A DNA stretch of 64,000 nt from a virus, in IMG/VR virus record IMGVR_UViG_3300030061_002429, positions 1 to 64,000 of that record; one strand, 5' to 3'. Under the pieces are notes generated by a model. That model saw only the letters and a program-made list of their open reading frames with translations, searched no databases and was not told the origin of the DNA. This document shows, one piece after another, positions 3,731 to 47,100 of this stretch. Both the position numbers and the translations under genes were made by a program. Numbering within the stretch: position 1 is the stretch's first letter; each line of letters starts with the position of its first letter.

Positions 3731-6382
3731 ATGTTTACAAATTGGAAAAGAAATGCGGATAAAGAAACCCGCTTAAATCCGTTATCTATAGATAATATTG
3801 ATGCTCTTACCATTGCCTCATTACGTGGTATGGGTACAACGCCTGAAAAATTTCGTTCAAATGTACAGCAAGACATGCCTGAAGATATTATGGAACAAGG
3901 CGAAGAAATCATGCGTAGAAATCCAAAAGTAACAATGCCTGAATCGCATTTTAAACTGCAAGGTGCTCAAGAACAACAAATGATGGATGATATAGAACTT
4001 GAAATTCCTGAATTTGAGTTTAATGAAGAAGAGGCATTAAAAAACGCAAGAATGCAAGAAATGAATCGTGAAATACCGATACAACGAATGAATGAAGCAT
4101 ACAAAAAAACATACAAAGACCACGTTATGCAAGCCTTTGAGAAACACAAAGCATTCATGCAAAGTCTTGGTAACCAACCAATGACTGCTCAAGAGTTTAT
4201 GCAACATCCAAAAGTGCCTTCGCTAACCGATTACATCAATCAAGCAAAAGAAGGCACAATGCCCGGTGGAGATAATGCAGACGAACATCCGTTTGCTATG
4301 ACGCACCCTAAAGAGTTCATTCAACATAGAGATGGTACAGGCGATATATTACCACCAATTGGAATGGGAGGGACATTTAGAAACGATGACCCATTTATCC
4401 CCGTCATCACAGGCGAGCCAATGGACTTAGCAATGGACATCTTGCTTAAAGCGGGGCAATTCCAAAGTGCCGCACAGCGTCGTATTTACAGTGAAATACC
4501 AACGCTTGAAGAACGTGGATTAGAAGCAAAAGATGTTCCATTCATACGAAATATAGGTGTACATCGTATAGAAAGTGCTAATATGCCAGCATTCAACATT
4601 CCAGTGCCACTTCGTGGTGAACGACCCGGTGACCCATTACGATTTGAACGTGATGTTTATGCAAGTGGCGGTGCAACCATACCCGGTTTTACGCCTGATT
4701 ATCAAATACCTGATGACCCTCGTAAAGAAATTCAAGGAACGTTTGTTTATTCGAATGATTTACAATCACTTTCACCTGAATTAAGAATGGGTTATCCTGA
4801 TTTTAATTGGGGAATCGGTGATACTGTAACACTTGGTATACTTGACAAACCTGAATGGCTTGCAGGTCAAGCACATGGAAGAACCCAACCCGAAGGGTAT
4901 CAACCATTTGGCTTTGATAAGGACGCATTTGTACGTTTAGACGATGGTTTGGGAACAGCCGCTATTGCTCCACGAAGAGAATTGGTATCATCAGCAAGAA
5001 GACTCTTAACAGGTAACCCACTTACAGGTGATGAGTACAAGTATTATGATTACAAACCACTTTACGATATGTTGTCAAAATTACCAGCGACAACTCTTGA
5101 AAGCCAACGTGACCCAGTAACAGGTTATCTTCCTAAAACATCTGATTTTCTTCTTGACCGTACAGGCGGCGCAAGAATCGTTGCCAGCGAACCAATGGAC
5201 TTGGCAATAGACGCATTGCTCAAGCGTGACTTTGATTCTTGGGAAGTTCACCCCGGTGAAAATCAATACAAACACAATTACAAAATGCCAAATCCTGATG
5301 ATGTACACCCCGAATGGTATGATTGGCTTCATGAAGTTATTAACGAGCCGTGGGAATACGAAGGAATTATGGATGATTATCAACAACCCGACATAGACCA
5401 CTTAACAGGTGCTACATCTCGTGAAGATTTCTTTGAAAGATTATATGATTTACATAATTTTCAAGTTGATGATGCATCACCTCCGCATAACATTATTGAC
5501 GGTGTTCGTAATTTTACTGATATACCATTCAACGAAGAAACAGGCTTTACTCGTAGCGAACCAATGGACTTGGCAATAGACGCATTGCTTAAGCGTGAAC
5601 TTCACCCCGGTTATCCTGAAGATATGTCAATTGAAGACATGATAAATGCTGGACACGATTATCCTTTTAACAAAGATAAATACCCTGACGGGTATCTTGC
5701 TAATTATCCTGAAGAACACATTGAAGAGTATGGAAAAAAACCGTTTAATCCAACTGAACCCGGTGAACAACCTTTACATGTAGGATTAAACGGTCTTCCT
5801 CCATACTCTCAACGTGATATTGATGCTCACCGTGAACAAATGTATCGTGAAACACTTGAAAGAATGAACGCAATAGATAACAGTAGAGATAATGAATCGT
5901 GGGCTAAATGGGTAGCAAGTGAAGCAATGCCACCTGCACCACAGGATTCACCATTACGTTTAACAAGACAAATAATGGTTCCAGTAAAAAATGCTGATGA
6001 AAATGATGTAGACGCTTTAATGGATATGCCTGATGAAACAGGGGCAACAGTAGTACAATCATTTGCAGGTATACCGATGAATGAAAAAACAGGTTTCACT
6101 CGTAGCGAGCCAATGGCATTAGCAATGGATGCATTGCTCAAAGACCTGTCACCTGAAGCCAAGCGTCACAAGTTGGAGTACGACAAGAAGTACGAGTCCA
6201 GTCCTGAACGAGTCAAGTATCGAGAGGAATTAAACCGTGAGCGACGGCGACGTGGTATCTACGGCAGTGGCGACCACATGGACGTGTCGCATACAGAAGG
6301 CGGAAAACTGACACTGGAATCCGAACATGACAATCGAGCAAGGCATTTTAAGGACAAAGGGACACTACGACCCAGTGATTGA
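3731..6382 (+). CDS. modular polyprotein with four EPMxLAxDxLLK linkers and C-terminal HNH-like domain
   Basis: 883 aa; linkers at 4415, 5189, 5558 and 6107; last module GDHMDVSH...LESEHDNRARH resembles short phage HNH domains. Confidence 0.7.
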   Translation: MFTNWKRNADKETRLNPLSIDNIDALTIASLRGMGTTPEKFRSNVQQDMPEDIMEQGEEIMRRNPKVTMPESHFKLQGAQEQQMMDDIELEIPEFEFNEEEALKNARMQEMNREIPIQRMNEAYKKTYKDHVMQAFEKHKAFMQSLGNQPMTAQEFMQHPKVPSLTDYINQAKEGTMPGGDNADEHPFAMTHPKEFIQHRDGTGDILPPIGMGGTFRNDDPFIPVITGEPMDLAMDILLKAGQFQSAAQRRIYSEIPTLEERGLEAKDVPFIRNIGVHRIESANMPAFNIPVPLRGERPGDPLRFERDVYASGGATIPGFTPDYQIPDDPRKEIQGTFVYSNDLQSLSPELRMGYPDFNWGIGDTVTLGILDKPEWLAGQAHGRTQPEGYQPFGFDKDAFVRLDDGLGTAAIAPRRELVSSARRLLTGNPLTGDEYKYYDYKPLYDMLSKLPATTLESQRDPVTGYLPKTSDFLLDRTGGARIVASEPMDLAIDALLKRDFDSWEVHPGENQYKHNYKMPNPDDVHPEWYDWLHEVINEPWEYEGIMDDYQQPDIDHLTGATSREDFFERLYDLHNFQVDDASPPHNIIDGVRNFTDIPFNEETGFTRSEPMDLAIDALLKRELHPGYPEDMSIEDMINAGHDYPFNKDKYPDGYLANYPEEHIEEYGKKPFNPTEPGEQPLHVGLNGLPPYSQRDIDAHREQMYRETLERMNAIDNSRDNESWAKWVASEAMPPAPQDSPLRLTRQIMVPVKNADENDVDALMDMPDETGATVVQSFAGIPMNEKTGFTRSEPMALAMDALLKDLSPEAKRHKLEYDKKYESSPERVKYREELNRERRRRGIYGSGDHMDVSHTEGGKLTLESEHDNRARHFKDKGTLRPSD
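5186..5598 (+). repeat. 44-nt direct repeat encoding the linker peptide
   Basis: AGCGAACCAATGGACTTGGCAATAGACGCATTGCT(C/T)AAGCGTGA at 5186-5229 and 5555-5598, one mismatch; more diverged copies at 4415 and 6107. Confidence 0.9.
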
Positions 6383-6383
6383 T

Positions 6384-6983
6384 ATGACACCAATGCAAGA
6401 GGCTTGGCAGATTTTAAAAACCGAGTTTTTGTTTGAAAATGCTCCAAGAGAGCAAACTATACCTGCTGGTCTTGTCTCTCATAGTTTTAGTCCCGACTGG
6501 CTTTCAAACATTGAAAGTAATCCCGCCGAAGCGGAAATCAACTTAGGCCATAGTAAATTTCCACAAGAGGTAGAAAAAATAACAGGCGGTGAATTTCAAA
6601 CGCCTGAATACCCATACGATAGAGAAGGCGTAATCAATAGTTATTGGAAAAATTATGATAAGAAGTTTGACCCCGCACTTATTGACAGTATGACTGATTT
6701 ACTACGACACGAATCTGTGCATGAAACTCTCAATAACGTTCCTGAAATGAGACAAGCACTTGCTCATGCAGTTAGTGAAGCCAAGAAAGGTAATTTAGAA
6801 CCTTACAAGCAGTGGTTGGTTGTCCACGAAACTATGGCTAATTTTCAACCACCTAATTTTAAAGGTGAAAAAGAAAACGTCAAGAATTACATATGGAATA
6901 ATCCTAAGTTTAGTCACAGTGAGTTGTATGAAGAAGCGCAAAAAGTCAAACAAGGTGGATGGAAAAGAGGTGAAAAACAATGA
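6384..6983 (+). CDS. tagged putative zincin metallopeptidase
   Basis: Starts MTPMQEAWQILK; LLRHESVHETL (HExxH) with a downstream Glu in VHETMA. Confidence 0.55.
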   Translation: MTPMQEAWQILKTEFLFENAPREQTIPAGLVSHSFSPDWLSNIESNPAEAEINLGHSKFPQEVEKITGGEFQTPEYPYDREGVINSYWKNYDKKFDPALIDSMTDLLRHESVHETLNNVPEMRQALAHAVSEAKKGNLEPYKQWLVVHETMANFQPPNFKGEKENVKNYIWNNPKFSHSELYEEAQKVKQGGWKRGEKQ

Positions 6984-7486
6984 CACCAATGCAAGAGGCT
7001 TGGCTGTTATTGAAAATGCCTATTGTTGATAATTCTATACAACAAACAAGTGATAATCGTTTTGAAGCACAATTTCGTGACCCAAAAACAAACAAAATTT
7101 ATCCTATGATTGCAGAAGAAAATCCAAAATTTGGTGTAATGAATGTAGGTATTTATCCGTCACAGCCGACAATTTTAGGTACTCCTACGGCTCTTGATGC
7201 AATGGATTTAACAGATGATGACATAAATGATGATGTAATAGATTCACTCGGTCTTGGATTATCCAATGCTGAATTAAGTGTAGCCGACCGCTATGGTGAT
7301 GGACATGATTCAGACAACTATTGGGAATCAAATATGACGTGGACGCATCCTCTACACAGAAGACGTGGATATGCTACAGCGTTGTATAATTTAATAAATC
7401 AAATCAGTCCTCGTCAAATAAGACCGAGTGATAATCAATCTGATGAAGGAAAATTATTTTGGTCTAAAAGGAGGCGACCTGAATGA
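6980..7486 (+). CDS. tagged GNAT-family acetyltransferase
   Basis: GAGGTGA RBS; MTPMQEAWLLLK; WTHPLHRRRGYATALY is a GNAT acetyl-CoA motif A, followed by QSDEGKLFW. Confidence 0.7.
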   Translation: MTPMQEAWLLLKMPIVDNSIQQTSDNRFEAQFRDPKTNKIYPMIAEENPKFGVMNVGIYPSQPTILGTPTALDAMDLTDDDINDDVIDSLGLGLSNAELSVADRYGDGHDSDNYWESNMTWTHPLHRRRGYATALYNLINQISPRQIRPSDNQSDEGKLFWSKRRRPE

Positions 7487-7638: not shown

Positions 7639-7797
7639 GTACTACTCTTAATTATAATATAATTGTAGTACCTATGAATAAATGACTATTGTATTGGTCA
7701 ATTTAGTGACTATACCTGTGAATAAAGTGAATAAAGCGGTAAAGTGACCATAGCGAAACGTTTATGTTGCCCATTATTTTGACCAACAGTGAGAACG

Positions 7798-8325
7798 ATG
7801 CAGGGCAGTACTGAAAATTCGGACGCTGAAATACGACTAATGGGGCTTATTTTGTCGCAATCCGCACTGGTTGGGTTGGCAATTGGAATCTTTGACAAGG
7901 ACATTTGGCTCAACCACGACGACCCAATGGTAAACGGTTTTACCTACGCAATGGCAGCATTCTTTGTGCAAGGTATTGCGTACTATTTCTTCAAAATGTT
8001 CTTTGAACAGAACATGCAAGAGCGTGTACGTATACAACAATCCGAGCGACAACGCCAAACTCGATACCGTTCTTTGCAAACCAACTTCGATAATCGTCGT
8101 GCCGACATGGAGTTGCGTATGCAAGAAGCGCAACTTGAGCGTGAACTGCGATGGATGGAAGAAAACCCCGGTAAAATGCCTCCATCATGGGGCGTACAAG
8201 GTGGCTCTCCTTCATTGGTAAGCCAGTACGATGAAAATCAACTTAATGTATATCCTCCAAAACACGAGGCTATTGTCGATAAACCAATTAACTTGGGTAT
8301 CAAAGAGGAAGAAAAGAAAGAGTGA
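7798..8325 (+). CDS. two-TM membrane protein with coiled-coil tail
   Basis: Two hydrophobic segments (LMGLILSQSALVGLAIGIF; FTYAMAAFFVQGIAYYFF) then a Q/E/R coiled coil. Confidence 0.75.
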   Translation: MQGSTENSDAEIRLMGLILSQSALVGLAIGIFDKDIWLNHDDPMVNGFTYAMAAFFVQGIAYYFFKMFFEQNMQERVRIQQSERQRQTRYRSLQTNFDNRRADMELRMQEAQLERELRWMEENPGKMPPSWGVQGGSPSLVSQYDENQLNVYPPKHEAIVDKPINLGIKEEEKKE

Positions 8326-8336
8326 GGTGAACCCGC

Positions 8337-8591
8337 ATGGGTCGCATATTCAAAACGCCAAGTGATGACAGCACCGAAGCAACACTTCGTGCCATGCATA
8401 CGCAAAACACACTTGACAATTATTACGAAAAGGGTTGGGGATGGCTTCGTACCATACTGTTTACATTGTTTGCTGTTTTGGCAACGAGCCTGTGGGAAAA
8501 ACACACAGATGCATCGGTATGGGACAACACAGTAGAATGGTTTGTAGGTAAAGTCGAAGACTTTGGTAACTGGGTTTTGGGGTTGTTCTAA
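8337..8591 (+). CDS. small membrane protein
   Basis: GAGGTGA RBS; WLRTILFTLFAVLATSLW hydrophobic helix and amphipathic C-terminus. Confidence 0.75.
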   Translation: MGRIFKTPSDDSTEATLRAMHTQNTLDNYYEKGWGWLRTILFTLFAVLATSLWEKHTDASVWDNTVEWFVGKVEDFGNWVLGLF

Positions 8592-9307
8592 TGGTAGACC
8601 CAGCAGGTTCAGCATTGGTTGGTGTCATGGTTTGGGGTCAAGCCCTTTACAATTCATGGCGACCACGACGTGTTGGAATCTATGGTGCGGGTATGGTCGG
8701 TAAAACAACACTTGACCGTTTTATGACAACGCCCGGTGAAATGGAAGATATATCTGAAGAAGAACGAACATTGCATCGTAAAATGCTCGGTAAGTACAAA
8801 ATGCCAAAACCAACACGTAAGCGTGTAAGTTGGAAAGGACACAAGCGTGTTGTGTATTCTTCTGACGTGGGTGGACAAGAACGTTTTTGGAATCTTTGGA
8901 TTGATGATATGGTTAATCGACAAGTTGAGGCTGTTGTTTACATGTTTGATGACCGAGCCTTCAAAGGTGGTAATGATGCATTACAACAAGTCGCAGGTTT
9001 CAAATTCCTTGTCGATGCTATTCTTAATCGACAATATCGTTACCGCAACTGGAAAGCACGACGCAAGGGCAAAAAGTACATGCCAAAACTGATTATGTTG
9101 GTTGCAAACAAGGCTGACCGTTTCTTCGATGATACTGCCGCAATGTTGTGGCAACAAGACCGCATAGGTGAACATAAGATATTCGACCCGTTTCGGGATG
9201 ATTTAATACGATTGCAACGTGGAGGTGTACCTACACGACGGTCGTTTATGGCTACAAGAATAGGGTGGAACGTTGAAAATACAATGGTCGATTTATTGAC
9301 AGCATAG
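8591..9307 (+). CDS. Arf/Ras-like small GTPase
   Basis: G1 GAGMVGKT, G3 DVGGQERFWNLW, G4 NKAD, G5-like MATRIGWNV; hydrophobic N-terminal helix. Confidence 0.9.
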   Translation: MVDPAGSALVGVMVWGQALYNSWRPRRVGIYGAGMVGKTTLDRFMTTPGEMEDISEEERTLHRKMLGKYKMPKPTRKRVSWKGHKRVVYSSDVGGQERFWNLWIDDMVNRQVEAVVYMFDDRAFKGGNDALQQVAGFKFLVDAILNRQYRYRNWKARRKGKKYMPKLIMLVANKADRFFDDTAAMLWQQDRIGEHKIFDPFRDDLIRLQRGGVPTRRSFMATRIGWNVENTMVDLLTA

Positions 9308-9315
9308 GTGAGCAC

Positions 9316-9480
9316 ATGACAAAAACAAACATTACGTCTGTAGGAAACAAAACACAAAGTCTACGTACGGTTATACCGTTGTGGATTGTAAAAGTCTTGA
9401 AACTGTCAAAAGGTGACAAGATTGAATGGGATGTCGATGTACACAATAGTACAATTGAAATTAAAAAGGTGAAAGAATGA
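9316..9480 (+). CDS. AbrB/MazE/SpoVT-type DNA-binding protein (54 aa)
   Basis: Not in the ORF track; AGGTGA RBS; SLRTVIPLWIVKVLKLSKGDKIEW matches the swapped-hairpin consensus. Confidence 0.75.
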   Translation: MTKTNITSVGNKTQSLRTVIPLWIVKVLKLSKGDKIEWDVDVHNSTIEIKKVKE

Positions 9481-10418
9481 CTCTATTTTACGACAGAAAC
9501 ACAGGTATGCAACGCTTAGGTTCTTCAAATGAAGCACATTTGTACGCACTTAGCCAGCAGGGTAATGAATCGTTAAATTATGCAACGCTTATGGAACAGG
9601 CTACTGCACAATCGGCTATGCAACAAATTGCATCGGAACAAAACCTTGAAGTTCCAAAAGTCAATTTTTATCCTTCACGTCATCCTGACCCGCACAAAGC
9701 ACGACGCAAAGATATTCGACAAGCACGTAAACTACTTTCACCAGCAAAGCGTGCATGGTTCAACCCTATGCGATTCTTGTTTGGGCAAAAATACCGATAC
9801 GACCGTCAAGCCAGTATGTGTGTTGTTGATGGATGCGATTGTGCAAAACTAATTCAACACGACAATTTGTACGCAAAAATTACGGATGAAGAAACAGGTT
9901 ACTCACTATGGCAACTGTATTGGCAAAATCCAGTTACAGGAGAAGCCGAAGCATTTGTTGCAAAAGAAAAAGTCATGAATGGACGTAAAATGAAAGGCAC
10001 ATACTGTCCTGAACATTTGCATTTGTATCATCTTCTCAACAAGTGGGAGTCTGAAGAAGACAAACTACGTGAAGCAAATCCACGTCGTCTACGTGACCGT
10101 GTAAAGAAAGGTGTGTCAATGGTGACTGTACCTGTCGCTACCATGAAGAAAAAAGACCCGCAACCTGCTATGTTGGAAAAGTATGAACCATTCTTTGCTG
10201 AATTGGACAAAGACAGCAAAAAATTCAGTGGTATCAATATACAGTATTATGAAAATCCAATCACAAAAGAAAATGACATTACTACAGTGACTTTTGATTT
10301 GAGAATTTTTAAAGCGGAATTGGAAATGATGAACCAGCCAACTCCTGCTTTTCAAACAATTCTTAACCAACAGATGCAACAAAACACTATTGAAGAAGTA
10401 CAACTTGGGGGAGAGTGA
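9477..10418 (+). CDS. hypothetical protein with putative Zn-binding Cys/His
   Basis: 313 aa, coupled start; CVVDGCDC...YCPEH. Confidence 0.7.
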   Translation: MTLFYDRNTGMQRLGSSNEAHLYALSQQGNESLNYATLMEQATAQSAMQQIASEQNLEVPKVNFYPSRHPDPHKARRKDIRQARKLLSPAKRAWFNPMRFLFGQKYRYDRQASMCVVDGCDCAKLIQHDNLYAKITDEETGYSLWQLYWQNPVTGEAEAFVAKEKVMNGRKMKGTYCPEHLHLYHLLNKWESEEDKLREANPRRLRDRVKKGVSMVTVPVATMKKKDPQPAMLEKYEPFFAELDKDSKKFSGINIQYYENPITKENDITTVTFDLRIFKAELEMMNQPTPAFQTILNQQMQQNTIEEVQLGGE

Positions 10419-11032
10419 GTCTGATGTTGAATCTTAATCAAAACACCAATTCCAACGGTGCACTCAATCTTGGAGTAAACAGTGTTCAACAATCAACACC
10501 AATGCAAAATCCGTGGGCTTCCCAGCAACAACAAAATCCATTTATGCAAGGATTGGTTGGTGAAAATTCACAATTTATGAATCAACCAGTAGCCCCTCCA
10601 TCAGAAATTGAAATTCAAATTATGTTGTTGCGTGGTATTGTTCCTGTAGACCGATTCATAGCAAGTGAATCTATGGCTACAATGGTGCAGATGTTTAACG
10701 ACCTTGTAACATTTAGTGTTCTTGAAGTTTTCAAGAACGCAACATTTGTTGCTGATGATGATGGTAATCTCAAAATGGATGTAACTTCACTTCCTTCACA
10801 TTTACAAACCATGAGTTCAGATAACATTGCATCGAAGTTTACTGCCCTTCAAAGTGCGGCAACTCAAAACGTACAGACGGCTGAACAACAACAAATGCAG
10901 TTGAATCAAATGGCACAGCAATCTATGATGGGTGGTGCGTTAAGTGCCGCATTACAAAATGAAGGCATGATGCAAAAAGTGGGTGGCGGTGTAGGCACAT
11001 TTGCTCGTACACTCTTTACAGGAGGTCGTTAG
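10415..11032 (+). CDS. Gln/Asn-rich hypothetical protein
   Basis: GTG start overlapping the previous stop; Q-rich ends, Gly-rich amphipathic C-terminus. Confidence 0.7.
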   Translation: MSLMLNLNQNTNSNGALNLGVNSVQQSTPMQNPWASQQQQNPFMQGLVGENSQFMNQPVAPPSEIEIQIMLLRGIVPVDRFIASESMATMVQMFNDLVTFSVLEVFKNATFVADDDGNLKMDVTSLPSHLQTMSSDNIASKFTALQSAATQNVQTAEQQQMQLNQMAQQSMMGGALSAALQNEGMMQKVGGGVGTFARTLFTGGR

Positions 11033-11275
11033 ATGCAAGATAAAAGTTACTTACCGTACGGCTTTTCGACTTCATCGTTGAGTGTTATGAATCCACCACG
11101 TAGTGTCATTATTGACATGATAATGGTACAGTTTATCTCAATTATCTTGACAATGATTGCAATTATGTTGTTCAAAGGTAATGAGTTGTCATCTACAACG
11201 TTGTCATACTTTCTCGTTGCTCTCTTCGGAAGCGTCTTGATGGTTACTGGAATCTATTCGAGAATCACTCGATAA
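11033..11275 (+). CDS. small two-TM membrane protein (holin-like topology)
   Basis: GGAGGT RBS; two hydrophobic helices in 80 aa. Confidence 0.7.
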   Translation: MQDKSYLPYGFSTSSLSVMNPPRSVIIDMIMVQFISIILTMIAIMLFKGNELSSTTLSYFLVALFGSVLMVTGIYSRITR

Positions 11276-11512
11276 TGACCATTTACGCAAAGGACACGTT
11301 GAATTTTTTAATTTTAATTTTGTGTTAAGATGGCAACCACAGGCTGTACAACGTGTACCAAAGTGTGGACAAGAACGGCATATGCGAAGTCGATATAGTA
11401 TTGTATCATCATCGGCATAATCCTTTCTTGATATATCTTTCATGGCTTGCTTGATGCTTCTAAACGAATCGGTTGAGATTGGTACTCCAGCGATTCGCTT
11501 GTTCTTCCACAT
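11204..11512 (-). CDS. Cys-rich metal-binding protein (DUF6171-like pattern)
   Basis: RLRICRSCPHF..RCTACGC....K.....CPLRKW; likely start MWKNKR at 11512, divergent from 11573. Confidence 0.65.
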   Translation of the reverse strand: MWKNKRIAGVPISTDSFRSIKQAMKDISRKDYADDDTILYRLRICRSCPHFGTRCTACGCHLNTKLKLKNSTCPLRKWSLSSDSRIDSSNHQDASEESNEKV

Positions 11513-11572
11513 AGTGCAATCCAAAGATACAATCACCATAATTGTTTTCAAAGGGTATGTCTTAAGACAGAC

Positions 11573-12253
11573 ATGGCGGGTGAGCAAGTTGTCAAACGCT
11601 CCTGCGCTTTTTGCATGGACGAAGACCGTGAAGAGTTGGAAGAACAACTGCTTCAAGGTTACATTTCTCCAAAGCAATTGGACAAAGATAAAGGGTGGAG
11701 GCCGAACACATCCGACCGCCATTATCGAAATCACATGGGTGAGTACCATATAGCCGCTAACGCATCTTGTCCTGTGTGTACTTCGCCTCATCGAGCCGAT
11801 TACGAAAGCATTTATTTTGCTGACGGCTCACAAAGTGAAGTCATTGCTCAAGAACTGGGCATCAGTGAAAACTTGGTATATCAACACATGAAACATCACT
11901 TCCAACCATTGGTGCAAAAAACTGCGGCTCTTGAGATAGCATCGTTTGCTGTCGGCAACGAACTTTCTTTATTGCGTAACAATGCTGAACATTTGAATCA
12001 TAAACTAACAGAACTGCTTAACGAAGGCACTGTTCATGAAGATGGATTTGTTCGTGATGCTGTTGCTTTGCATAAAGAAGTAAGAGAAACCGTCAAAGAC
12101 TTGATGCGCTTCCAAGACCAATGGGGTCCACAAGGTGAAACACAGCAAGTCAATCAAACATTCAATATTTTGCAGGTTGAACTGAACAAAGAAAGTCCTG
12201 AAACGTGGGCAAGAATCAAAGCACAATTGCAAGAAAACATGGGGGTTGAATAA
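11573..12253 (+). CDS. tandem Zn-finger/HTH DNA-binding protein, candidate terminase small subunit
   Basis: Two CxxC...HxxxH repeats, the second with IAQELGISENLVYQH HTH, then a helical region; first gene of the operon leading to TerL. TerS role is inference. Confidence 0.5.
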   Translation: MAGEQVVKRSCAFCMDEDREELEEQLLQGYISPKQLDKDKGWRPNTSDRHYRNHMGEYHIAANASCPVCTSPHRADYESIYFADGSQSEVIAQELGISENLVYQHMKHHFQPLVQKTAALEIASFAVGNELSLLRNNAEHLNHKLTELLNEGTVHEDGFVRDAVALHKEVRETVKDLMRFQDQWGPQGETQQVNQTFNILQVELNKESPETWARIKAQLQENMGVE

Positions 12254-14139
12254 TGCCAATGATGGGAAGAGGTTCTGACACCCGAATGTATGCACCACGT
12301 AGTGAATCGGAAACGATGTACTCGTCGGCCAATGAGGATGGCACAAAATACAGTGGCAATACTCCTGAAGAAAAGGAGAAGAAAGAAGAAAACCGCAAGT
12401 TGCGAGCCGAAGAACGCAAGCAACGTCGTGATAAAATCAAGCACATCAAGATTCGCTCATCACAGGGATTGAAGGGTGAAGAGTCACCTGTTCCTGAAGA
12501 CGACAGCAACAAACAAGATGACGAGCGTGAGATTAGCCTACAAGGTGGTCCGGCGGGTAGTCGTGGTAATCTTCTCGACCTTGCAACAGGTGCAAAAACG
12601 GGTACAGGTTCAGCAATGACTGGACCGTTGCCGATTGCAATGAGTGAGCCAATGGATGGTGCTTGGAGTTCGCTACTCAAGGCTGTGCTTGGTGACCAAA
12701 GAGGTGTTGTGTATAACCCTCGTTTCAGAACAAGTGAATCGCCAAATCAAGCAGATGTACGTGAAGGTCAAGCATTTGGAATGGTTGGTTCACGACGTGG
12801 GGCTGGTGAACCAGCAGAACGTCGTAGAAAACAATTGGTTATGGGTCAAAAAAGATTGGACGCAGGTATTGATAAAAGACTGATGTACAGCGACCCTGAT
12901 TATTACGATTACTTGGTGGCACGTACTCAACTTCCTCCTTCAAAGCAACAAGAACTACCTTACCCTGCTGTAGAAAGAAGAAACATTGAACGGTTAGGCG
13001 GAGGACAAATGCAGGGTGGGCGACGTGGCTCGATTGCTCAACGTGCAGGGTTTGATGCAAGTCCAGCACAACTACACAATTTACAACGTCTTTCTACAAC
13101 AATGATACCTCAAAAATTTATGATGAGAGATGACGCAATTGATTATTCGGGCTTAACCCCATCACCAGTACCAAACATGGTGTATACTCCTGATGGTACA
13201 CTTATTCCTGACCCTCGTCTTGAACAAAAATCCAGTGATTTTGTTTTGGTGTCTAATATTCTCAAGCGTGAAACACCTAAGAGTATCGAATCACGTCGTC
13301 GTCGTGAAAAGCGACAACAGTTCCGACCATCAACAGGTCAATTTAAGCGACCACCCGGTGGTATGAATCCTGTTGGTGCAACCATGCGTCGATTCCGAGC
13401 ACGTATGCGTGGTATCAAAGGTGGTAAGAAAACAGGTTTGATGAAGCCACACTTGTCTGTTGAGATGAGTCACCGTGGTATTGCAACAAAGCAACCAATG
13501 TCCAAAGACCCACAGAAGTATCGACAATACATGGGTCAATCCGAGGCTCGTAAAATACTTGGTAATGTACGCTCAACATTTTCACCACACGCTCGATACG
13601 GTGAACGTTCCGTTACAGCAGGTCCAACAGGTGCAGGTCGTCTTGGTGGATTGATGCCCGGACAATCAGGACAAATGCGACAACCTTCGCTCAAACAAAT
13701 CGGTGTACGTCGTCCACGACTACGACGACCTCGTAATCCAGTTATGGCTACCGCACCACCAATGGGTGTACCAAGTCCACCAATGCAAGCACCATCAAGT
13801 ATCTCATCGCTACCCCAAGCATCGACTCCAATGATGATGAGTGAGGAGCGTGCAGAAAGTGATTTGCTCAAAGGTCGTGTAAATTCGTTAAAGTATCATA
13901 AAATCAATCTTCTTCGTCGTTTAATAGCAGCACAAGAACGTGCTGAAAAACTTGGTAAATCAATGCAAGGTACACGTTCAGCAATGGAAAACGGCCATGT
14001 CCCAAGCCACCCTGCGGGTGTACGTGCAAAAGACGAAGAAGACCCTGAAGGTCCAACCGAAAATTTGGAAACAGATGCAAAGCGATTTGGACTTGACCCT
14101 GCTGGATATTTGACCTCAAAGCGGGGGCATATGGGATGA
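12253..14139 (+). CDS. basic low-complexity protein with internal tag
   Basis: 628 aa; EPMDGAWSSLLK at 12646-12681, also NILK/RE and DLLK/GR; Arg-rich segments. Confidence 0.7.
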   Translation: MPMMGRGSDTRMYAPRSESETMYSSANEDGTKYSGNTPEEKEKKEENRKLRAEERKQRRDKIKHIKIRSSQGLKGEESPVPEDDSNKQDDEREISLQGGPAGSRGNLLDLATGAKTGTGSAMTGPLPIAMSEPMDGAWSSLLKAVLGDQRGVVYNPRFRTSESPNQADVREGQAFGMVGSRRGAGEPAERRRKQLVMGQKRLDAGIDKRLMYSDPDYYDYLVARTQLPPSKQQELPYPAVERRNIERLGGGQMQGGRRGSIAQRAGFDASPAQLHNLQRLSTTMIPQKFMMRDDAIDYSGLTPSPVPNMVYTPDGTLIPDPRLEQKSSDFVLVSNILKRETPKSIESRRRREKRQQFRPSTGQFKRPPGGMNPVGATMRRFRARMRGIKGGKKTGLMKPHLSVEMSHRGIATKQPMSKDPQKYRQYMGQSEARKILGNVRSTFSPHARYGERSVTAGPTGAGRLGGLMPGQSGQMRQPSLKQIGVRRPRLRRPRNPVMATAPPMGVPSPPMQAPSSISSLPQASTPMMMSEERAESDLLKGRVNSLKYHKINLLRRLIAAQERAEKLGKSMQGTRSAMENGHVPSHPAGVRAKDEEDPEGPTENLETDAKRFGLDPAGYLTSKRGHMG

Positions 14140-24388: not shown

Positions 24389-24960
24389 TGAAGCCTCGTC
24401 CAAGTGAAGCACCTTTACTTACCAAAGCAAGAGAAATCGAGCAACGCCTAAGTCAATTAGAAATTATCAAAGGAAAAGATTGTCCTTCATGCAAAGACGG
24501 TAAACTCGACAAAATGGGTAACTGTATGAAAATGGGTTGCGGTGGCAAAATGGCAAAAGCCGAACCCGGTTTCAAGCCTGAAAAAATCACAGACGTAAAC
24601 CCTGCTTTCATGGCTGAATCAGGTGGACAAACTAAGAGTGGTTACTTTACCACTAACGGTAGGACCATTGAAACAGAAGACGCACCAAAGAAAAAGAAAG
24701 GTAAGGATTCAACCAACATGGAACAACTTTCAACTCGTATGAACCCACATGCAGGTGGTGGTGTGGATAGGGAAGATGCAATGGGAGAGTCAAAGAAACT
24801 CAAGAAAGCATCAAGTAAGGCTCTTATGCGTGAAATGAGTGAGCAACGCCCAGTGCCAACAATTTGTGGTACATGCGGTGCGACACAACAAAGCGGTTGC
24901 AAAATGCCTGAAATGATGGGTGCTGACCTCCACGCATGTCCAGCATTCAAGCCGCTATGA
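24388..24960 (+). CDS. Lys-rich Cys-cluster protein
   Basis: CPSC..C...C and CGTCG...C...HAC clusters. Confidence 0.7.
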   Translation: MKPRPSEAPLLTKAREIEQRLSQLEIIKGKDCPSCKDGKLDKMGNCMKMGCGGKMAKAEPGFKPEKITDVNPAFMAESGGQTKSGYFTTNGRTIETEDAPKKKKGKDSTNMEQLSTRMNPHAGGGVDREDAMGESKKLKKASSKALMREMSEQRPVPTICGTCGATQQSGCKMPEMMGADLHACPAFKPL

Positions 24961-24973
24961 TGGCGGTGAAAGT

Positions 24974-27900
24974 ATGTCGTATGACCAACTTGACATTGCA
25001 AGTGCCGATTTACTAAAGTCGTTGGACGACAAACTTGACCTTGAGCGTAATGCGGCTGAATATATTATAGCATGGCAATCCATGCAAAAAGCACCAAGTG
25101 AAGTCATTTACACGTCACTGTATTCAATCGCTGATGCGATTATCAAAGAAAAAGAAAAGGGTGAAGATAAGTTTGAGTATGAATACGATACTGGAACAGA
25201 CACAGGTGCAGGATTGCTTCTTAACACACAAGACACACAAGACGATTTGACAAACCACATTTGGGTTGATGGACTACAACGTGGTAAGAAAAACGCTGAC
25301 CATCACTCCGTATGGCCTGTGTACCGACCAACAGCAGGTCATCCATACAAAGAATATCACTTCCCATTTCACCCTGCCAATCACCCGCTTCTTCGTATGC
25401 ATTCTGTAACAGGTATGCCGCACTTTGTTGAAATGCTCCGAGCACACACATTTGGCGGTTACATGGATGAAGAGAAAGAAATGGAAAAAGATTACTTAAG
25501 CGAACTTTCTAAAGAAAAACATCCGTTACTATTTGGATTCAAACCGGAAACGTCGGATAAAACATTCAAACTGCTTGGAAGTATATTGCAAAACGGCTCG
25601 ATGCTTTCACATCAAAAAGACCTCTACCAACGTGATTTTCAACGTTGGAAGAAACAAAACACAGAACGAGAAGATGAGTATCGTGCAATGGGTATGGCTC
25701 CAAAAGATGTTTTTCAAAAACTGCGTGAAGACCACTTTGAAGACCGAGCAAGGCAATGGGTAAGTGAAGATACAGTACTTGATGATGATTACAAGATTCA
25801 TGCAACTGCATTAGGACATCATGGTTACATGCTTGGCCTTGAGTGGTTGTCACCTGAAGAACGTACTGCGGTTATGAAAGGTATACGTGAAGGTGTAGAC
25901 GATAATCACTTGATTGAATTACCAAACGGTCAAAAAATACCATCGGCTCGTTTTACGCACAATGCGATTATGCGAAAAACACCTGAAATGAATTGGGCTG
26001 TACGAAGTCCGAGAATGTTAGGACGTAACGCTTCGCTTCGATTAGAAGACAACGATACCGATTATGAAGCAAGTGAAGCAGGTCGTTTCTTACAATCAGG
26101 TATGGCAAGAGGAGCGCATCTTCCATACGGTTCAAACGATGAGTCAATTGCTGATATTATCCTTAATGAAATCAATGAATTGTATGGTGGTATGCGAGAA
26201 GACGCTGGAAAAGGTTACAAGCGAAGAATGAAGTTTTTACCACGACTCAATCTTCACCAAACAGGTGAACTTCCTGAATTGGAATGGGAACAGTTGAAAG
26301 ATGCTGAACGAGCGCAATTTGGTAAAAGAACCATGAAAGTAGACCATACGAGATTACCTATTGAAGATATTTTGTACATGGCGGGTTTTCATCCTAAAAC
26401 AAGAGAACTACTATCCATGCATCCTGTTTATGGAAAAATGGACGGACCGCTTGTACCGCTTGACTGGATTGAAAACATCGAAGAAGATGCTTCTTCGTCC
26501 ATGAATTTGCAACAACAAGAAAAAGATATTCGTAAGCACTTATCGTTTTTGAAAGCCGCTTACGGTCCAGCACCGAGTGAAGACAAGCCTTCCTATTGGC
26601 GCACAAGTGAAGACGGAAGGCACACTTACGGTCTTGGTTCTTTTTGGTCAAAACCGTTTCAAGGAATGGGTGGTGCGGGTATGACATTACCTACGTACAA
26701 CGAAATTATTCACGCTACTACTTCAGACGATGACAGCGTATCGTTGCTCGGTGAAATGCATGATTTTGGTGGAAGTAGTGAAAAAACCGTTATCGTACCA
26801 AATCAAAACAATGTTTCTTTGGGTGCTCATTTTATGCCTGAACACTCTCAAGAACACGGCCAATACGATGAAAATGCGAAAAAATATGTTTATCATAATG
26901 AATTTAAAACCATTCAAAATATACTTTCACCGTCAAATGTTTCACGACCCGTACCAAGTGCGTCATCAAAATCAGGGTACAAAGAAGGCAAAACGTCAAA
27001 GAACAATTTTACTGAACACAAATCATCGCTTTCAGCCCCCTACGAATATGCAATACGACACATGACTGATGGTGAACGAAAAGATTTGTTTGAAAATCAA
27101 CCTCACCTCAAAGCGTTCAACAGTGTACTTACAAGAAATCCATTCATACATCACGGTTCGTATCGTAATTATGCGCCATATGGAAGCGATAAACATATTG
27201 TCAATAACGCACAAGACACTCACAAACAAATTATGCAACTGGGTCGATTTAATCACTTGAACAACCCTACTGAAAAATCTGTTATATCGTTTAACGATTT
27301 TATACGAGATGCACAACCAGTAAGTGGTGGTGAAACCACCGAAGATATGCTTGCGTATTTGGGATGGGGTGTACCATCACCATCGTTTGGTAAAGTCAAA
27401 AACTATTTGCAAAGCAGTGAACAACGTGAAGGATTGCGTTTCTTAACTGAAATATCAAAAACCATCCAATCAACAAATCCAAAGGCTATTTTGGAATATT
27501 TGGAAAAAGAAGATTTTGAAGACCTGTACCAGCGTTTGGGCTTTAACAAGAATGAAACTGCACCAATAAAACAAATTGTTGATAACTTCTTGGATGATGT
27601 ATTGATAAGTTTGTCAAATAGTAGTCGTTCATTTAAGCATAAGAAGCCAACACTTCTTGATGCTGTTACAAGTGGTTTGAGTTTTGGTGGAGCACTCCCT
27701 GCATTTGAAAAGGAAGAAAAATTGCAAGAAGAAGTCGATGATTTGAATCAACGTATGGTTGAGGCTGATGATATTGATAAGCCACTTATCCAACAACAAC
27801 TTTCTCAAAAAGTTGCTGAATTGACTTCGCTTCAACAACAAGCCATTGAAAGCACTCAAGGTAAAATGACAACGCATTGGAAAATAGACCAAGGAAATGA

Positions 27901-44165: not shown

Positions 44166-47100
44166 ATGGTAGCAATTGGAAGAACAAGTCACGCTTTCTT
44201 TTTTGATGGCGTATCTGATTCCATTATTATACCACAAAGCACATTTAACAGCACTGGAATAGAACGTAATGGTGTTAAAGCACCCCTTTCAGCATTGTCG
44301 GATGTTGAATTGCAAAACACCATAGGAAACATTTCGTATTCTGATTTTGTTATTGAAGCATGGGTCATTCCCGATTGTGGTGGTATTATTGCTCAACGAG
44401 ATGGACAGTTTCAATTGGAATTAGGAACAGTTGATACGCCCGGACCAGCAGTATTTCATCTTACTATGCAAACAGCGTTTGGTGATAAAACAATTACACT
44501 TAACACTGCTTTTGATAAAACAACTCGATGGGATGGCGTTGTTTACCCGTCACAAGAATATGGCGGTATACATGACTCATACAATCGTTTTGACACTTCC
44601 AATTACGGTGAAGCAAGTGGTTTGAATTTTAATAATCGACCACTGTATCATATTGTTGCTTCGTATCGAGGAGGTAACATTGAATTGTATGTCAATACAG
44701 ATATGGTTGCATCGAAAAAAGTCCCAATAGAATACCGAGTAAAACAGGTTGATGGTCACGTCTATGTTGGTGGGAAGGGTGGTCAATTTCGTGGTGCTAT
44801 TGAAAGCATACATTTCTCCAACAGTAAATCAAATAACATTTTCCAACCTGATTTTCCAACGTTAGGGAATGCAAGCACTGGTTTGTATCGTTTTGAAGAA
44901 CCACTTGACATTGTAGAAAAGGTCTACACAATGAATGCTGTAACAGCCGCAACTGATGGTTCGACAAAAACCATCACGATTGGAACGGCTGATGCACAGG
45001 AACTCATCGCTAAATTAACTGGTAAAGCATACGATAGCAGTAGTCCTATTGCGACTTTTACCGAATCACCATACAGTATGGGGAATTACGAAGTCAATGA
45101 TTTTTATTCTACACCCGGTACGACTGCAAAACTTTCGATAGCGCACACGCCTTACAATCTACTCATCAATGCGGGTTCACTTAATCGTAACACGTTCAAG
45201 CCTAATCAAAAACCGCCTGAACGTGTGCGTTTGCATTCTATAGATGGAAGCAATGGAAACATTTCAATTTCGAGTATACACGTTGATTTCGTTAATGGTA
45301 CAAGCGGATTGCGAGGTTTATTGCATTCAAGAACGGCTGATATTGATAATTATTTTGTAGTTGTTGGTGCTGATTTATTGATTGATAACGGTACAGGAAA
45401 GCCCTATCAACCACCGCATTACGGTACACAAATTTTTGACAGAACGGGACAAATGGTTCTTGATGAATCGGACAGTGAATCTCACGGATTAGTATACTCA
45501 TCAAGAATGGCAACAACTACATCTGACCCTAAAAATCCTTTTGCGGTTGTATGGCCTACATCAATTGACACGTTGTTCCAAATTGGTCACAGTGGAAGAC
45601 ATGCTCTTTCTCATATTACTGGACACGACTACATGCGAAGATTACCAGTACCAAACGATATGACTGTAGACCAAGTAATGAGTGGTAGTAGTGATATTGT
45701 TACGATGCGTTACGATTCTTCTCAACGTAACTTAAAAAATACAATCAGCATCAATAAGAATGTAGATGCTTACAGTCCTAATTTGAAAGGAAGCGTGAAA
45801 AGTTTTGTTAATACAAGTACTGTGGCTTCTATTGTAGATAACGGCTTACCTGCGTCGGTAAAGGAACTAATCGCTATTGGTGGGGCTGGGTTCGATGTAC
45901 GACCGTTTTTCTTGAAAGGTCCAGTTCCACAATCATATGACGAAGAAAGTCGTCTTTTCCATTTACGACCTGAAAAAGAATCTCGTATTGCTTTGCTCAA
46001 AGTACCCGCATTGCAGTCTTCTCACAATCTTGCACCGTTTGTTGAAATTCATTACAATGCAATTGACTTAACAGGTGCAAGCATGGGGATTAGCGGTCCA
46101 ATGCTCATGGTTGAAAAAACTGTACCAGCAGGGTCTTTTGACTTAGGTAGTGGTACTCGTGTCATTGATGTTATTACCAGTGACCTTGCGAATACTGTGC
46201 TTTATTCAGCAGGTGGAGTAATTGATTTTACAACGGGATATATGGGGTCAAACAATGTATTGAGTAAACCAAATTCTCTTGTTGGTGATACGACTGGTGG
46301 TAATGATAATGATTCTGAACTTGACTTTTCGACTACACCTGCTGTATATACTCCTGTAAGTGATGTTAATGCTATACCAGCCTCCCCGCCTAAAGTTATC
46401 AAAAAGTCACATGTATCATCTAATCACAATTCAGTTTATCATAAACTGTACTTTACACCTTCAACTAACATAATAACAGAAGAAGACCAAACGTTTTATC
46501 GTAAAATAAAACCTCTTACAACAAAATCTTCCACTGGAGAATTTGATATTGGACCGGTCAACACTCGTTCACATATGTTTGAGATGTTTGATATTATTGA
46601 TAATCAATCTACCAATGATAATCGAACAGCCATTTTATATGTTCAACCTTCAAACAAAAAACGTACAAATCAATTTTACAATTTATCCACCGCTACAAAT
46701 GGTCAAGCCACAAGAATGCATATATTGCAACTCATAACAAGAGGGCGAATCCGTAGCATCAATCAAGTTGTAGACGGTGAAACAAATGAAATTGATACTG
46801 AAATTGTCATTCGTGGTATATCGGATGAGTATCTTTCACAGAACATTGACGTTCTTGGTAGTGGTTCGCCTGATTCTCATGTCGTCAAAGAGATTGAACC
46901 CAATGCACCTGTCGTCACCGTCACGCTTGGCGGTCCCGGTCAAGGGGCGGTCAATACCAAGCCCACCTTCGACCCTTCACCGTTAATGCGTCTACCCGGC
47001 TCGACACGGCGAATGTGCGCTGTACAAGGCGTTGAGGTATTTGCTACAAACAGTAGTACAAGCGGTGTCACTGATTCGCTTACTATACGACCTCTTAACA

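Follow-up and report, generated by a model that had tools for sequence, protein, structure and literature searches.

A conserved magrovirus gene cassette combines a divergent Arf/Sar-type small GTPase with predicted membrane proteins

Seven open reading frames (ORFs) lie tightly packed on the + strand at positions 7798-11275 of the window, the 64,000-nucleotide stretch of viral DNA analysed here, exactly where the initial annotation had placed them. The first, termed A (7798..8325), more likely starts at ATG 7798 than at GTG 7789 and encodes two predicted transmembrane (TM) helices followed by a basic coiled coil. B (8337..8591) encodes 84 amino acids with a single predicted TM helix, and its stop codon overlaps the start of the GTPase gene (8591..9307), the two sharing 1 nt. 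The GTPase, a divergent Arf/Sar-like protein of 238 amino acids, carries an N-terminal helix, a P-loop, DVGGQ..W and NKAD motifs, and a polybasic loop. It is followed by D (9316..9480), a clade-specific insert encoding 54 amino acids that resemble AbrB/MazE (SpoVT); by E (9477..10418), a 313-amino acid orphan that is basic in its N-terminal region and has a Cys/His cluster; by F (10415..11032), a Q-rich protein of 205 amino acids with a GTG start; and by G (11033..11275), which encodes 80 amino acids with two predicted TM helices and is of holin-like size. D and E overlap by 4 nt, as do E and F, and F abuts G with zero gap. Upstream of A, a 159-nt AT-rich, non-coding gap (7639..7797) with TATA-like runs and no + strand ORF is a possible promoter region; a sigma-70-type promoter scan, whose model is not relevant to archaea, performed no better than on shuffles.

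Against homologues, pN is far below pS for all seven ORFs, indicating purifying selection, with dN/dS at ~0.05 for the GTPase; D, at 0.24-0.61, is the least constrained of the seven. An AWxxLK-like tag that occurs on the flanking ORFs 3731, 6327, 6980, and 12253 is absent from all seven cassette proteins, as had been noted initially. Neither an envelope hydrolase nor a recognised holin family was found for any cassette protein in Pfam, PHROGs, or NCBIfam, and blastn and tblastn searches with the cassette and the GTPase gave no match in a phage collection.

The record carrying the cassette (IMGVR_UViG_3300030061_002429; 101,688 bp) represents a tailed virus of ~102 kb. Besides a virion module of terminase, portal, prohead protease, and capsid proteins, it encodes a thermosome subunit, PolB, an RFC-like ATPase, ERCC4, a PD-(D/E)XK nuclease, and an SNF2 helicase. 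Group A magroviruses (Magrovirales) have been defined by a genome of ~100 kb, an HK97-type virion module, an archaeal-type replication set, a thermosome subunit, and an SNF2 helicase (PMC5434244), and the record shows every one of these features. Judged by size and gene content, the virus is thus a group-A-type magrovirus of Marine Group II, a group of abundant ocean archaea, and the haloarchaeal setting first suggested for it does not hold. Magroviruses rank among the most abundant viruses in surface ocean waters (PMC5434244). The cassette shares its strand block with the terminase, portal, protease, and capsid genes and its strand with all virion genes, and in the window it is located directly upstream of four genes termed H, I, J, and K and of the terminase gene.

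Across 89 distinct members of the GTPase family, G32, G37, K38, T40, D92, G95, N173, K174, and D176 are invariant, confirming the complete G1, G3, and G4 motifs reported from the initial reading; W103 is likewise invariant. The switch II signature in the window, DVGGQERFWNLW, consists of an Arf-type DVGGQ followed by this conserved Trp. At the 'catalytic' position 96, 50 members have Q, 23 E, 13 D, and 3 H. Gln is swapped for Glu, Asp, or His in 44% of the family, which obscures the hydrolysis mechanism. An AF2 model (pLDDT 86.6) places a helix at residues 4-23, within an N-terminal segment that is nearly charge-free (mean KD ~0.5, muH 0.3-0.45). The helix, initially described as hydrophobic, is upheld as a predicted, uncharged element. 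Judged from its sequence, it is too weakly hydrophobic for a TM helix; in silico it qualifies as an N-terminal amphipathic helix of the Arf family, and it aligns with those of 8OUN (by profile) and of full-length Arl3 and Arf1 (by fold). A conserved polybasic loop is located at about residues 150-165.

The family placement of the GTPase was examined by profile, fold, and single-sequence comparisons. A PDB profile search returned GerdArfR1 (8OUN) first (E 4e-8) and Arl8 next (5e-5), with weaker matches to Rab33B (1e-3) and KRas (3e-3). In a VIA-align comparison of the model, the top 15 structures all belonged to the Arf family (Z 16.4-17.9), with Rab and Ras at ~15, and a wide fold search was led by Arf6, Sar1, and SRbeta, Sar1 (1M2O) ranking third (Z 17.2). 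Both profile and fold put Arf, Arl, Sar1, SRbeta, and ArfR closest among solved structures, in line with the original Arf-like call. The GTPase did not reach the threshold of PF00025 (Arf; 9.4 bits vs a cut-off of 22.3, E 0.037), and Pfam matches of single members scatter over Roc, MMR_HSR1, EF-Tu, and Arf (Roc in 11 and Arf, weakly, in 5 of 20 family members). With phmmer, no PDB sequence was matched, while 1.84 billion representative proteins (a library without taxon names) yielded 79 matches, mostly fragments of the GTPase's own family. On profile and fold evidence, the protein is a very divergent Arf/Sar-type small GTPase.

Hydropathy agrees with the earlier calls of a two-TM coiled-coil protein (A), a one-TM protein (B), and a two-TM protein (G). 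A has a strong TM segment (KD19 2.04), a weaker second one (1.37), and then the basic coiled-coil stretch, which is predicted to be cytoplasmic by the positive-inside rule. This architecture is kept at 20-24% identity in distant clades (alignment A3), and an A-like ORF lies upstream of the GTPase in all 156 loci; a PDB profile search with A gave no match. One weak PADLOC match of A to a '4TM effector' model (E 0.0012, only 16 bits) was set aside as noise or a lead at most. B contains a moderate TM segment (KD19 1.44 at residues 35-53) and has counterparts in 143 of 156 loci. The two TM segments of G are more pronounced (KD19 2.57 and 1.92). G was found in 80 of 80 close loci and has counterparts by position and architecture in the loci L087 and L192; none was seen in one large clade, termed P0148-type.

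Among the remaining partners, D had been called an AbrB-type regulator and a member of the operon. The fold resemblance stands; family membership is not established, the match to PF04014 falling below the gathering cut-off (20.6 bits vs 24.7, E 4.2e-4) and NCBIfam giving weak PrlF and doc-partner matches. Its place in the cassette holds in 76 of 80 close loci, yet D is absent from four distant clades and is thus an insert specific to one clade, outside the conserved core. The Cys/His protein and the Q-rich protein, in turn, could both be recognised as described. E directly follows the GTPase in the core order of every clade and carries a cluster of C115, C120, C177, and H180 (alignment A2), ligands that are lost in the P0130-type clade. 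It had no Pfam or PDB profile match, and its AF2 model reached a pLDDT of 53; ESM Atlas leads towards an HNH-like identity (0.75-0.77 only) are weak and were regarded as noise or a lead at most. A predicted complex of the GTPase with E residues 56-290 scored 0.01, a value that counts neither for nor against binding. From a Q/N/G-rich N-terminus, F runs through a conserved central domain of ~100 amino acids and a Q-rich helix to a Gly/Met-rich tail; it could be aligned across four clades (alignment A4), and an F-like ORF is present in 150 of 156 loci.

Five GTPase clades, in which GTPase identity drops to ~31-40%, share the gene order A-B-GTPase-E-F, and G usually comes next. Within close loci, the GTPase is the most conserved gene of its neighbourhood (67-99% identity). 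The flanks vary by clade: tagged cargo genes in the window, elsewhere a D12 methyltransferase gene, a thermosome gene, or prohead protease and capsid genes. In this last, P0148-type arrangement, the cassette has the prohead protease and capsid genes on one side and homologues of 36142 and 38556 of the window on the other. In two clades, a Zn-ribbon/HTH protein (H) follows the cassette. The differing genomic positions indicate that the cassette moves as a unit. Lack of co-conservation had been named in advance as grounds for abandoning the operon proposal; instead, the neighbours are conserved with the GTPase in five clades and relocate together. Overall, the initial proposal is supported in part, with lysis, vesicle release, and superinfection exclusion as candidate roles. 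Gene order is often conserved in viral genomes, and this alone is no proof of joint function. A single-protein scan of genome contigs gave only one match, an 8.7-kb contig in a Maricaulis MAG; the complete cassette lies on it, and the contig is probably viral and misbinned. Among viral contigs, no genomic contexts were found for P0194, P0163, and P0154, the GTPase relatives that are furthest removed.

The explanation we favour, at a little under even probability, is that the cassette is a virus-encoded GTP switch module that acts at the host cytoplasmic membrane late in infection, perhaps for egress. The analysis establishes the genes, their motifs, the fold, the selective constraint, and the co-conservation; the mechanism built on them is a proposal. 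A role at the membrane is suggested by the three of six GTPase partners that are predicted membrane proteins (A, B, and G) and by the nearest solved relatives of the GTPase, which are membrane-acting. That the genes behave as a module follows from the order kept in five clades with differing flanks and from the overlapping start and stop codons. Late timing is indicated by the location in the virion-gene strand block and, in one clade, between the capsid gene and downstream virion genes, a placement amid virion genes that recalls the lysis cassette of P2-like phages. Mechanistically, the GTPase would alternate between soluble and membrane-bound forms via its uncharged N-terminal helix and polybasic loop. 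A and B may serve as its membrane receptor or activator, by analogy with Sec12 and Sar1, the orphan soluble proteins E and F as effectors or regulators, and G as an accessory membrane component. In the end, the membrane would be locally remodelled or ruptured, with release of tailed virions as the most plausible purpose. There is precedent in Haloferax, where vesicle formation is driven by the Arf-like GTPase ArvA (PMC10927574), and the egress machinery of archaeal tailed viruses is acknowledged to be unknown (PMC10791045). Several observations were counted against this explanation: no hydrolase, no holin family match, and a sub-threshold Pfam Arf score; Roc matched more often than Arf, a variable catalytic Gln, and a type of conserved order that is common in viruses; and the absence of G from one large clade and loss of the E Cys/His cluster in another.

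The genomic placement also bears on a different reading, in which the GTPase and its partners would be anchored at the membrane as a platform or checkpoint, serving DNA packaging or the assembly of capsids or tails, and would not act on the membrane as such. The P0148-type arrangement, between prohead protease/capsid genes and homologues of 36142 and 38556, fits such a morphogenesis factor, as does the position of the window cassette, shortly before H, I, J, K, and the terminase gene on the strand shared with all virion genes. In other clades, however, a methyltransferase or thermosome gene adjoins the cassette, its proteins lack the AWxxLK tag of the neighbouring putative virion cargo, and to our knowledge tailed-virus assembly requires neither membrane proteins nor small GTPases. 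We consider a morphogenetic role quite unlikely. The features that point to the membrane would equally fit a module that changes the membrane or envelope so as to block further viruses or alter the cell surface, and in phages superinfection exclusion is frequently mediated by small viral membrane proteins. Such genes are usually variable accessories, whereas this cassette is conserved across five deep clades with a GTPase at 67-99% identity, and late-gene placement is atypical for exclusion functions; exclusion or surface remodelling appears improbable to us.

Much the same degree of doubt attaches to the idea that the GTPase mimics or replaces a host ArvA-like GTPase and makes vesicles or an intracellular or peripheral membrane compartment for replication or release; we know of no tailed virions that exit cells in vesicles. 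Haloferax needs ArvA, an Arf-like protein with an N-terminal amphipathic helix, to form vesicles (PMC10927574), and the modelled viral GTPase shares the Arf-like fold and N-terminal helix. However, no neighbour with DUF2073 (ArvB) or DUF2072 (ArvC) was found, and ArvA homologues occur mostly in Halobacteriota, Methanobacteriota, and DPANN (PMC10927574). The most improbable of these alternatives, in our estimate, is a membrane-independent switch controlling host or viral translation, replication, or transcription, with the membrane-protein genes as syntenic passengers. It would accommodate the spread of single-sequence Pfam matches over Roc, MMR_HSR1, EF-Tu, and Arf, a polybasic loop that could bind nucleic acid rather than lipid, and the Zn-ribbon/HTH protein (H) that follows the cassette in two clades. 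Yet the membrane-protein genes relocate with the GTPase and are translationally coupled to it, and the best structural matches are the membrane-acting Arf, Sar, and SRbeta. A bolder version of the favoured membrane-switch explanation, which we regard as unlikely, holds that the cassette is a minimal, self-contained Arf/Sar-type membrane machine. In it, A and B would be membrane-anchored activators, the GTPase would insert its helix into the membrane, and E, F, and G would act as effectors or coat-like partners, together vesiculating or tearing the archaeal cytoplasmic membrane to release tailed virions.

The cassette, whose target is probably the host membrane at a late stage of infection, is described in no searchable paper: we found no mention of a magrovirus GTPase in the searchable papers on magroviruses (including the supplementary files of one paper), archaeal Caudoviricetes, ArvA, and Asgard ArfR. 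For a virus-driven membrane process in a host that is not in culture, it offers a concrete candidate that can be cloned, and it supplies a new set of possible GTPase partners that are unlike known GEFs, GAPs, and coats. Arf-type GTPases were long held to be a eukaryotic invention and have lately been traced to Asgard archaea (bioRxiv 10.1101/2024.02.28.582541). If the minimal-machine version is true, archaeal tailed viruses would have an egress mechanism of a new type, and an Arf-type membrane system beyond eukaryotes and Asgard archaea would be carried by a virus.

Virus-encoded Ras-superfamily GTPases are also known from giant viruses, and the mimivirus Rab (5XC5) appeared in our fold list (Z 14.8), but it is a Rab rather than Arf-like, comes from a virus of another host domain, and lies outside any membrane-protein cassette. 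Phage lysis cassettes (holin, antiholin, spanin; P2-like) likewise group small one-TM and two-TM proteins in a tight late-gene cluster amid or beside virion genes. Unlike these, the magrovirus cassette has no endolysin or other hydrolase and no holin family match in PHROGs or Pfam, and we know of no lysis cassette that includes a GTPase. The ArvA-ArvB-ArvC operon of Haloferax volcanii, other Euryarchaeota, and DPANN (PMC10927574) shares with it, ArvA being compared by its description, a single-domain Arf-like GTPase with a hydrophobic N-terminal helix and partners that are conserved and include a Cys-rich Zn protein; the link to membrane deformation belongs to the Arv system. In the viral cassette, by contrast, the partners include three TM proteins, and neither ArvB (DUF2073) nor ArvC (DUF2072 Zn ribbon) was found when every cassette protein and neighbour was scanned against Pfam at E up to 0.1. 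The main text of the ArvA paper names neither Thermoplasmatota nor Marine Group II (PMC10927574).

The Arf family itself (Arf1, Arf6, Arl1, Arl3, Arl8, Sar1; SRbeta; Asgard GerdArfR1 8OUN/8OUM and HodArfR1 8OUK) shares with the viral GTPase the G1, G3, G4, and G5 motifs, DVGGQ...W, and a helix ahead of the G domain, with fold matches at an rmsd of 2.3-2.8 over ~160 residues. As in Sar1, Arl8, and ArfR, there is no myristoylation glycine. Identity in these fold alignments is only 14-18%, and the viral protein differs by an insertion of ~28 amino acids before switch I, the polybasic loop before G4, and a longer G4-G5 section. It is also set apart by its origin in a tailed archaeal virus, by Q, E, D, or H at the catalytic position, and by partners without similarity to known GEFs, GAPs, or coats. 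Within this family, Sar1 with Sec12, the membrane protein that activates it, offers a parallel in arrangement: an Arf/Sar-type GTPase with an N-terminal helix adjoins a membrane-anchored protein with a cytoplasmic domain. A and B differ from Sec12 in having no WD40 or other recognisable domain, and an exchange activity of either is pure inference. The likeness extends to the active site in some viral members, which carry His at the catalytic position, the residue that Sar1 has there.

The seven ORFs of the cassette (7798-11275) all lie on the + strand with hardly any spacing between them, in an IMG/VR record of 101,688 bp of which the window covers the first 64 kb. Hydropathy predicts two transmembrane (TM) helices in A (7798-8325), one strong and one weaker, with a basic coiled coil beyond them; B (8337-8591) has a single moderate TM helix, and G (11033-11275), which abuts F, has two. 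The GTPase gene (8591-9307) has one base in common with the stop codon of B and is followed by D (9316-9480), E (9477-10418) and F (10415-11032), with E overlapping D and F overlapping E by 4 nt each. An AT-rich gap of 159 nt precedes A, and about 300 nt separate G from the next + strand gene. When the cassette ORFs are compared with homologues 70-90% identical in protein sequence, synonymous differences greatly outnumber non-synonymous ones in every case: dN/dS is about 0.05 in the GTPase, lies at 0.1-0.2 in A, B, E, F and G, and reaches 0.24-0.61 in D, indicating that these are real genes. The seven-gene run described in the initial annotation is thus borne out by ORF positions, hydropathy and selective constraint, as is the absence from it of the long AWxxLK tag: all seven proteins lack an AWxxLK-like tag, while flanking ORFs encode one. 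Peptide tags of the AWxxLK or EPMxLAxDxLLK type occur in the flanking proteins encoded at 3731-6382, 6327-6983, 6980-7486 and 12253-14139, and a flanking 883-aa protein bears four copies.

A + strand block of the genome encodes a large terminase, a portal, a prohead protease, an SU10/HK97-type capsid protein and a tape-measure-like protein, and a - strand block past the window encodes a group II chaperonin (thermosome subunit), PolB, an RFC-like ATPase, ERCC4, a PD-(D/E)XK nuclease and an SNF2 helicase. This gene combination defines magroviruses, with the thermosome subunit and SNF2 helicase singled out for group A (Philosof et al., PMC5434244). As the virion and replication gene set matches the magrovirus definition, the probable host belongs to Marine Group II (Poseidoniales), and the haloarchaeal setting originally suggested for the cassette does not hold. 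Two giant ORFs lie within the virion block, at 44166-60896 (+, 5576 aa) and 24920-30718 (+, 1932 aa); the latter shows no more than a weak similarity to ATP-dependent ligases over one stretch.

The order A-B-GTPase-(D)-E-F-G-H-I, where H and I are genes downstream of G, is kept in 80/80 close loci (GTPase 67-99% identical), with the GTPase better conserved than any other gene there. Four further clades, with GTPases 31-41% identical to that of the window, were found via distant representatives. In the window's clade, tagged cargo genes lie upstream of the cassette and H, I, J, K and the terminase gene downstream; the P0126-type clade (13 loci) has a D12 DNA methyltransferase upstream and the P0128-type clade (4 loci) a thermosome gene; in the P0148-type clade (140 loci) the cassette has prohead protease and capsid genes on one side and, on the other, genes homologous to 36142 and 38556 of the window; the P0130-type clade comprises 11 metagenome loci. 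Throughout the four distant clades, E is next after the GTPase, followed by F. Reading of the ORFs places A-like proteins, with 2 TM helices and a basic coil, and B-like 1-TM proteins immediately upstream of the GTPase, even past BLAST detection, and G-like 2-TM proteins lie downstream of the cassette core in two of these clades. A rule-based scan of the 156 loci with enough flank recovered an A-like ORF in every one, a B-like ORF in 143, an E-like ORF in 151 and an F-like ORF in 150. D is absent from all clades examined except the window's and is a clade-specific insert. Because the flanks differ from clade to clade, we conclude that the cassette relocates as a unit, which argues for joint function more strongly than a conserved order would by itself. 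A lack of co-conservation between the neighbors and the GTPase had been set beforehand as the refuting outcome; co-conservation was found in all five clades, so the refutation fails.

Records bearing the distant clades are 96-110 kb long and contain PolB and/or chaperonin genes, with terminal repeats in one. In the record of locus L181 (G004, C1:81250-82480), PolB is matched in two adjoining pieces, of which the second contains TGA and TAA stops in frame; this recalls the split DNA polymerase described in group B1 magroviruses (PMC5434244). In the P0130-type clade (L192:5217-5999, +), B and the GTPase are separated by an inserted gene for a 260-aa protein whose C-terminal half is extremely acidic and D/E-rich.

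Motif conservation in the GTPase was scored on a 20-sequence alignment (A1) and an 89-sequence set. Residues G32, G37, K38, T40, D92, G95, W103, N173, K174 and D176 are invariant, and 86 of the 89 members have Thr or Ser in switch I. Position 96, the site of the catalytic Gln in Ras and Arf, is variable among the 89 (Q 50, E 23, D 13, H 3). As a single sequence, the GTPase gives weak matches, to Roc in Pfam (E 0.0035) and to TIGR00231 (E 0.019), and phmmer returned no match among PDB sequences. With the A1 profile, the best solved structure is the Asgard Arf-related protein GerdArfR1 (8OUN, E 4e-8), in an alignment that takes in the N-terminal helix, with Arl8A/B second at about 1e-4, above Rab33B and KRas. 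Foldseek with the AF2 model (pLDDT 86.6, pTM 0.84) gave generic Ras and Rab matches only; upon re-ranking with VIA-align, the top fifteen chains were all Arf-family (Z 16.4-17.9, rmsd 2.3-2.7 over about 160 residues), with Rab and Ras chains at Z about 15, and a Foldseek-independent search of 48,161 chains placed Arf6, Arf6, Sar1 and SRbeta first. The hydrophobic N-helix noted initially is supported by the model, which predicts a helix at residues 4-23; this segment is nearly charge-free, moderately hydrophobic and amphipathic, and too polar for a TM helix. Relative to Arf, the viral protein carries about 28 inserted residues ahead of switch I and a conserved polybasic loop ahead of G4, and its G4-G5 region is longer. 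The label Arf-like is supported by profile and fold, which are nearest to Arf, Sar1, SRbeta and ArfR, but formal Arf family membership is not established, since the score against PF00025 (9.4 bits) falls below the curated threshold of 22.3. We read the GTPase as a divergent virus-specific branch that would work like an Arf/Sar GTPase.

The family of this GTPase is large yet isolated. A 5.8-billion-protein index yielded 460 matches, all marine, some with the automatic JGI name "GTPase SAR1 family protein"; among 1.84 billion, only 79 representatives matched, and ESM Atlas clusters of the GTPase itself were 100% viral. The single match in 185,579 species genomes (L084, NZMJ01000140.1) lies on a contig of 8.7 kb from a Maricaulis MAG. 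The whole cassette, A to I, is present there at 38-72% identity, and for this reason the contig probably comes from a magrovirus and was wrongly binned into this alphaproteobacterial MAG.

Searches of Pfam, PHROGs, NCBIfam and PDB matched no family to A, B, E, F or G. E combines a basic N-terminal region with a Cys/His cluster (C115, C120, C177, H180), and its AF2 model is poor. Four clades retain the cluster; the P0130-type clade (L183-L192) has lost it, with S/A, L/F, Q and W in place of C177, H180, H182 and H185 and the remaining protein kept, so the cluster is probably structural. F opens with a Q/N/G-rich low-complexity N-terminus and continues through a conserved central domain and a Q-rich helix to a tail rich in Gly and Met. 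Between G and H, a minus-strand ORF (11204-11791, likely gene about 11204-11530) with a Cys-rich CxxC...CxxCGC...CP..KW motif matches DUF6171 at E 3e-5 (24.8 bits, below the 27-bit cut-off); G-to-H spacing differs by about 300 nt among related loci, which would fit a lineage-restricted insert. H (11573-12253, +), with two CxxC pairs together with a weak HTH signal at the level of GerE and Sigma70_r4, follows the cassette in the window's clade and, at 30-33% identity, in the P0126-type clade, and could be a regulator or small-terminase-like protein.

The data establish the genes, motifs, fold, selective constraint, coupling and mobility of the cassette, from which its action is inferred. We tentatively propose, at somewhat less than even confidence, that the cassette is a late membrane-acting GTP switch, most plausibly for egress. 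A and B would receive or activate the GTPase in the manner of Sec12 for Sar1, E and F would serve as its effector or regulator, and the module would remodel or rupture a membrane late in infection. Late timing is suggested by an orientation shared with the virion genes and by a position, seen in one clade, between capsid and downstream virion genes. P2-like phages carry a lysis cassette set among virion genes, which this position recalls by analogy. A role in virion assembly appears unlikely, superinfection exclusion more improbable still and vesicle or compartment formation equally so; a switch acting independently of membranes is the most doubtful of these alternatives.

A magrovirus GTPase is mentioned in none of the papers examined, which comprise work on magroviruses, a survey of archaeal Caudoviricetes, the paper on ArvA and the Asgard ArfR preprint. 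The partners of the haloarchaeal vesiculating GTPase are ArvB (DUF2073) and ArvC (DUF2072) (PMC10927574); Pfam searches found neither domain among the cassette neighbors. We regard the cassette as an Arf/Sar-like GTPase switch, but one that is virus-borne and operates with an entirely novel partner set.
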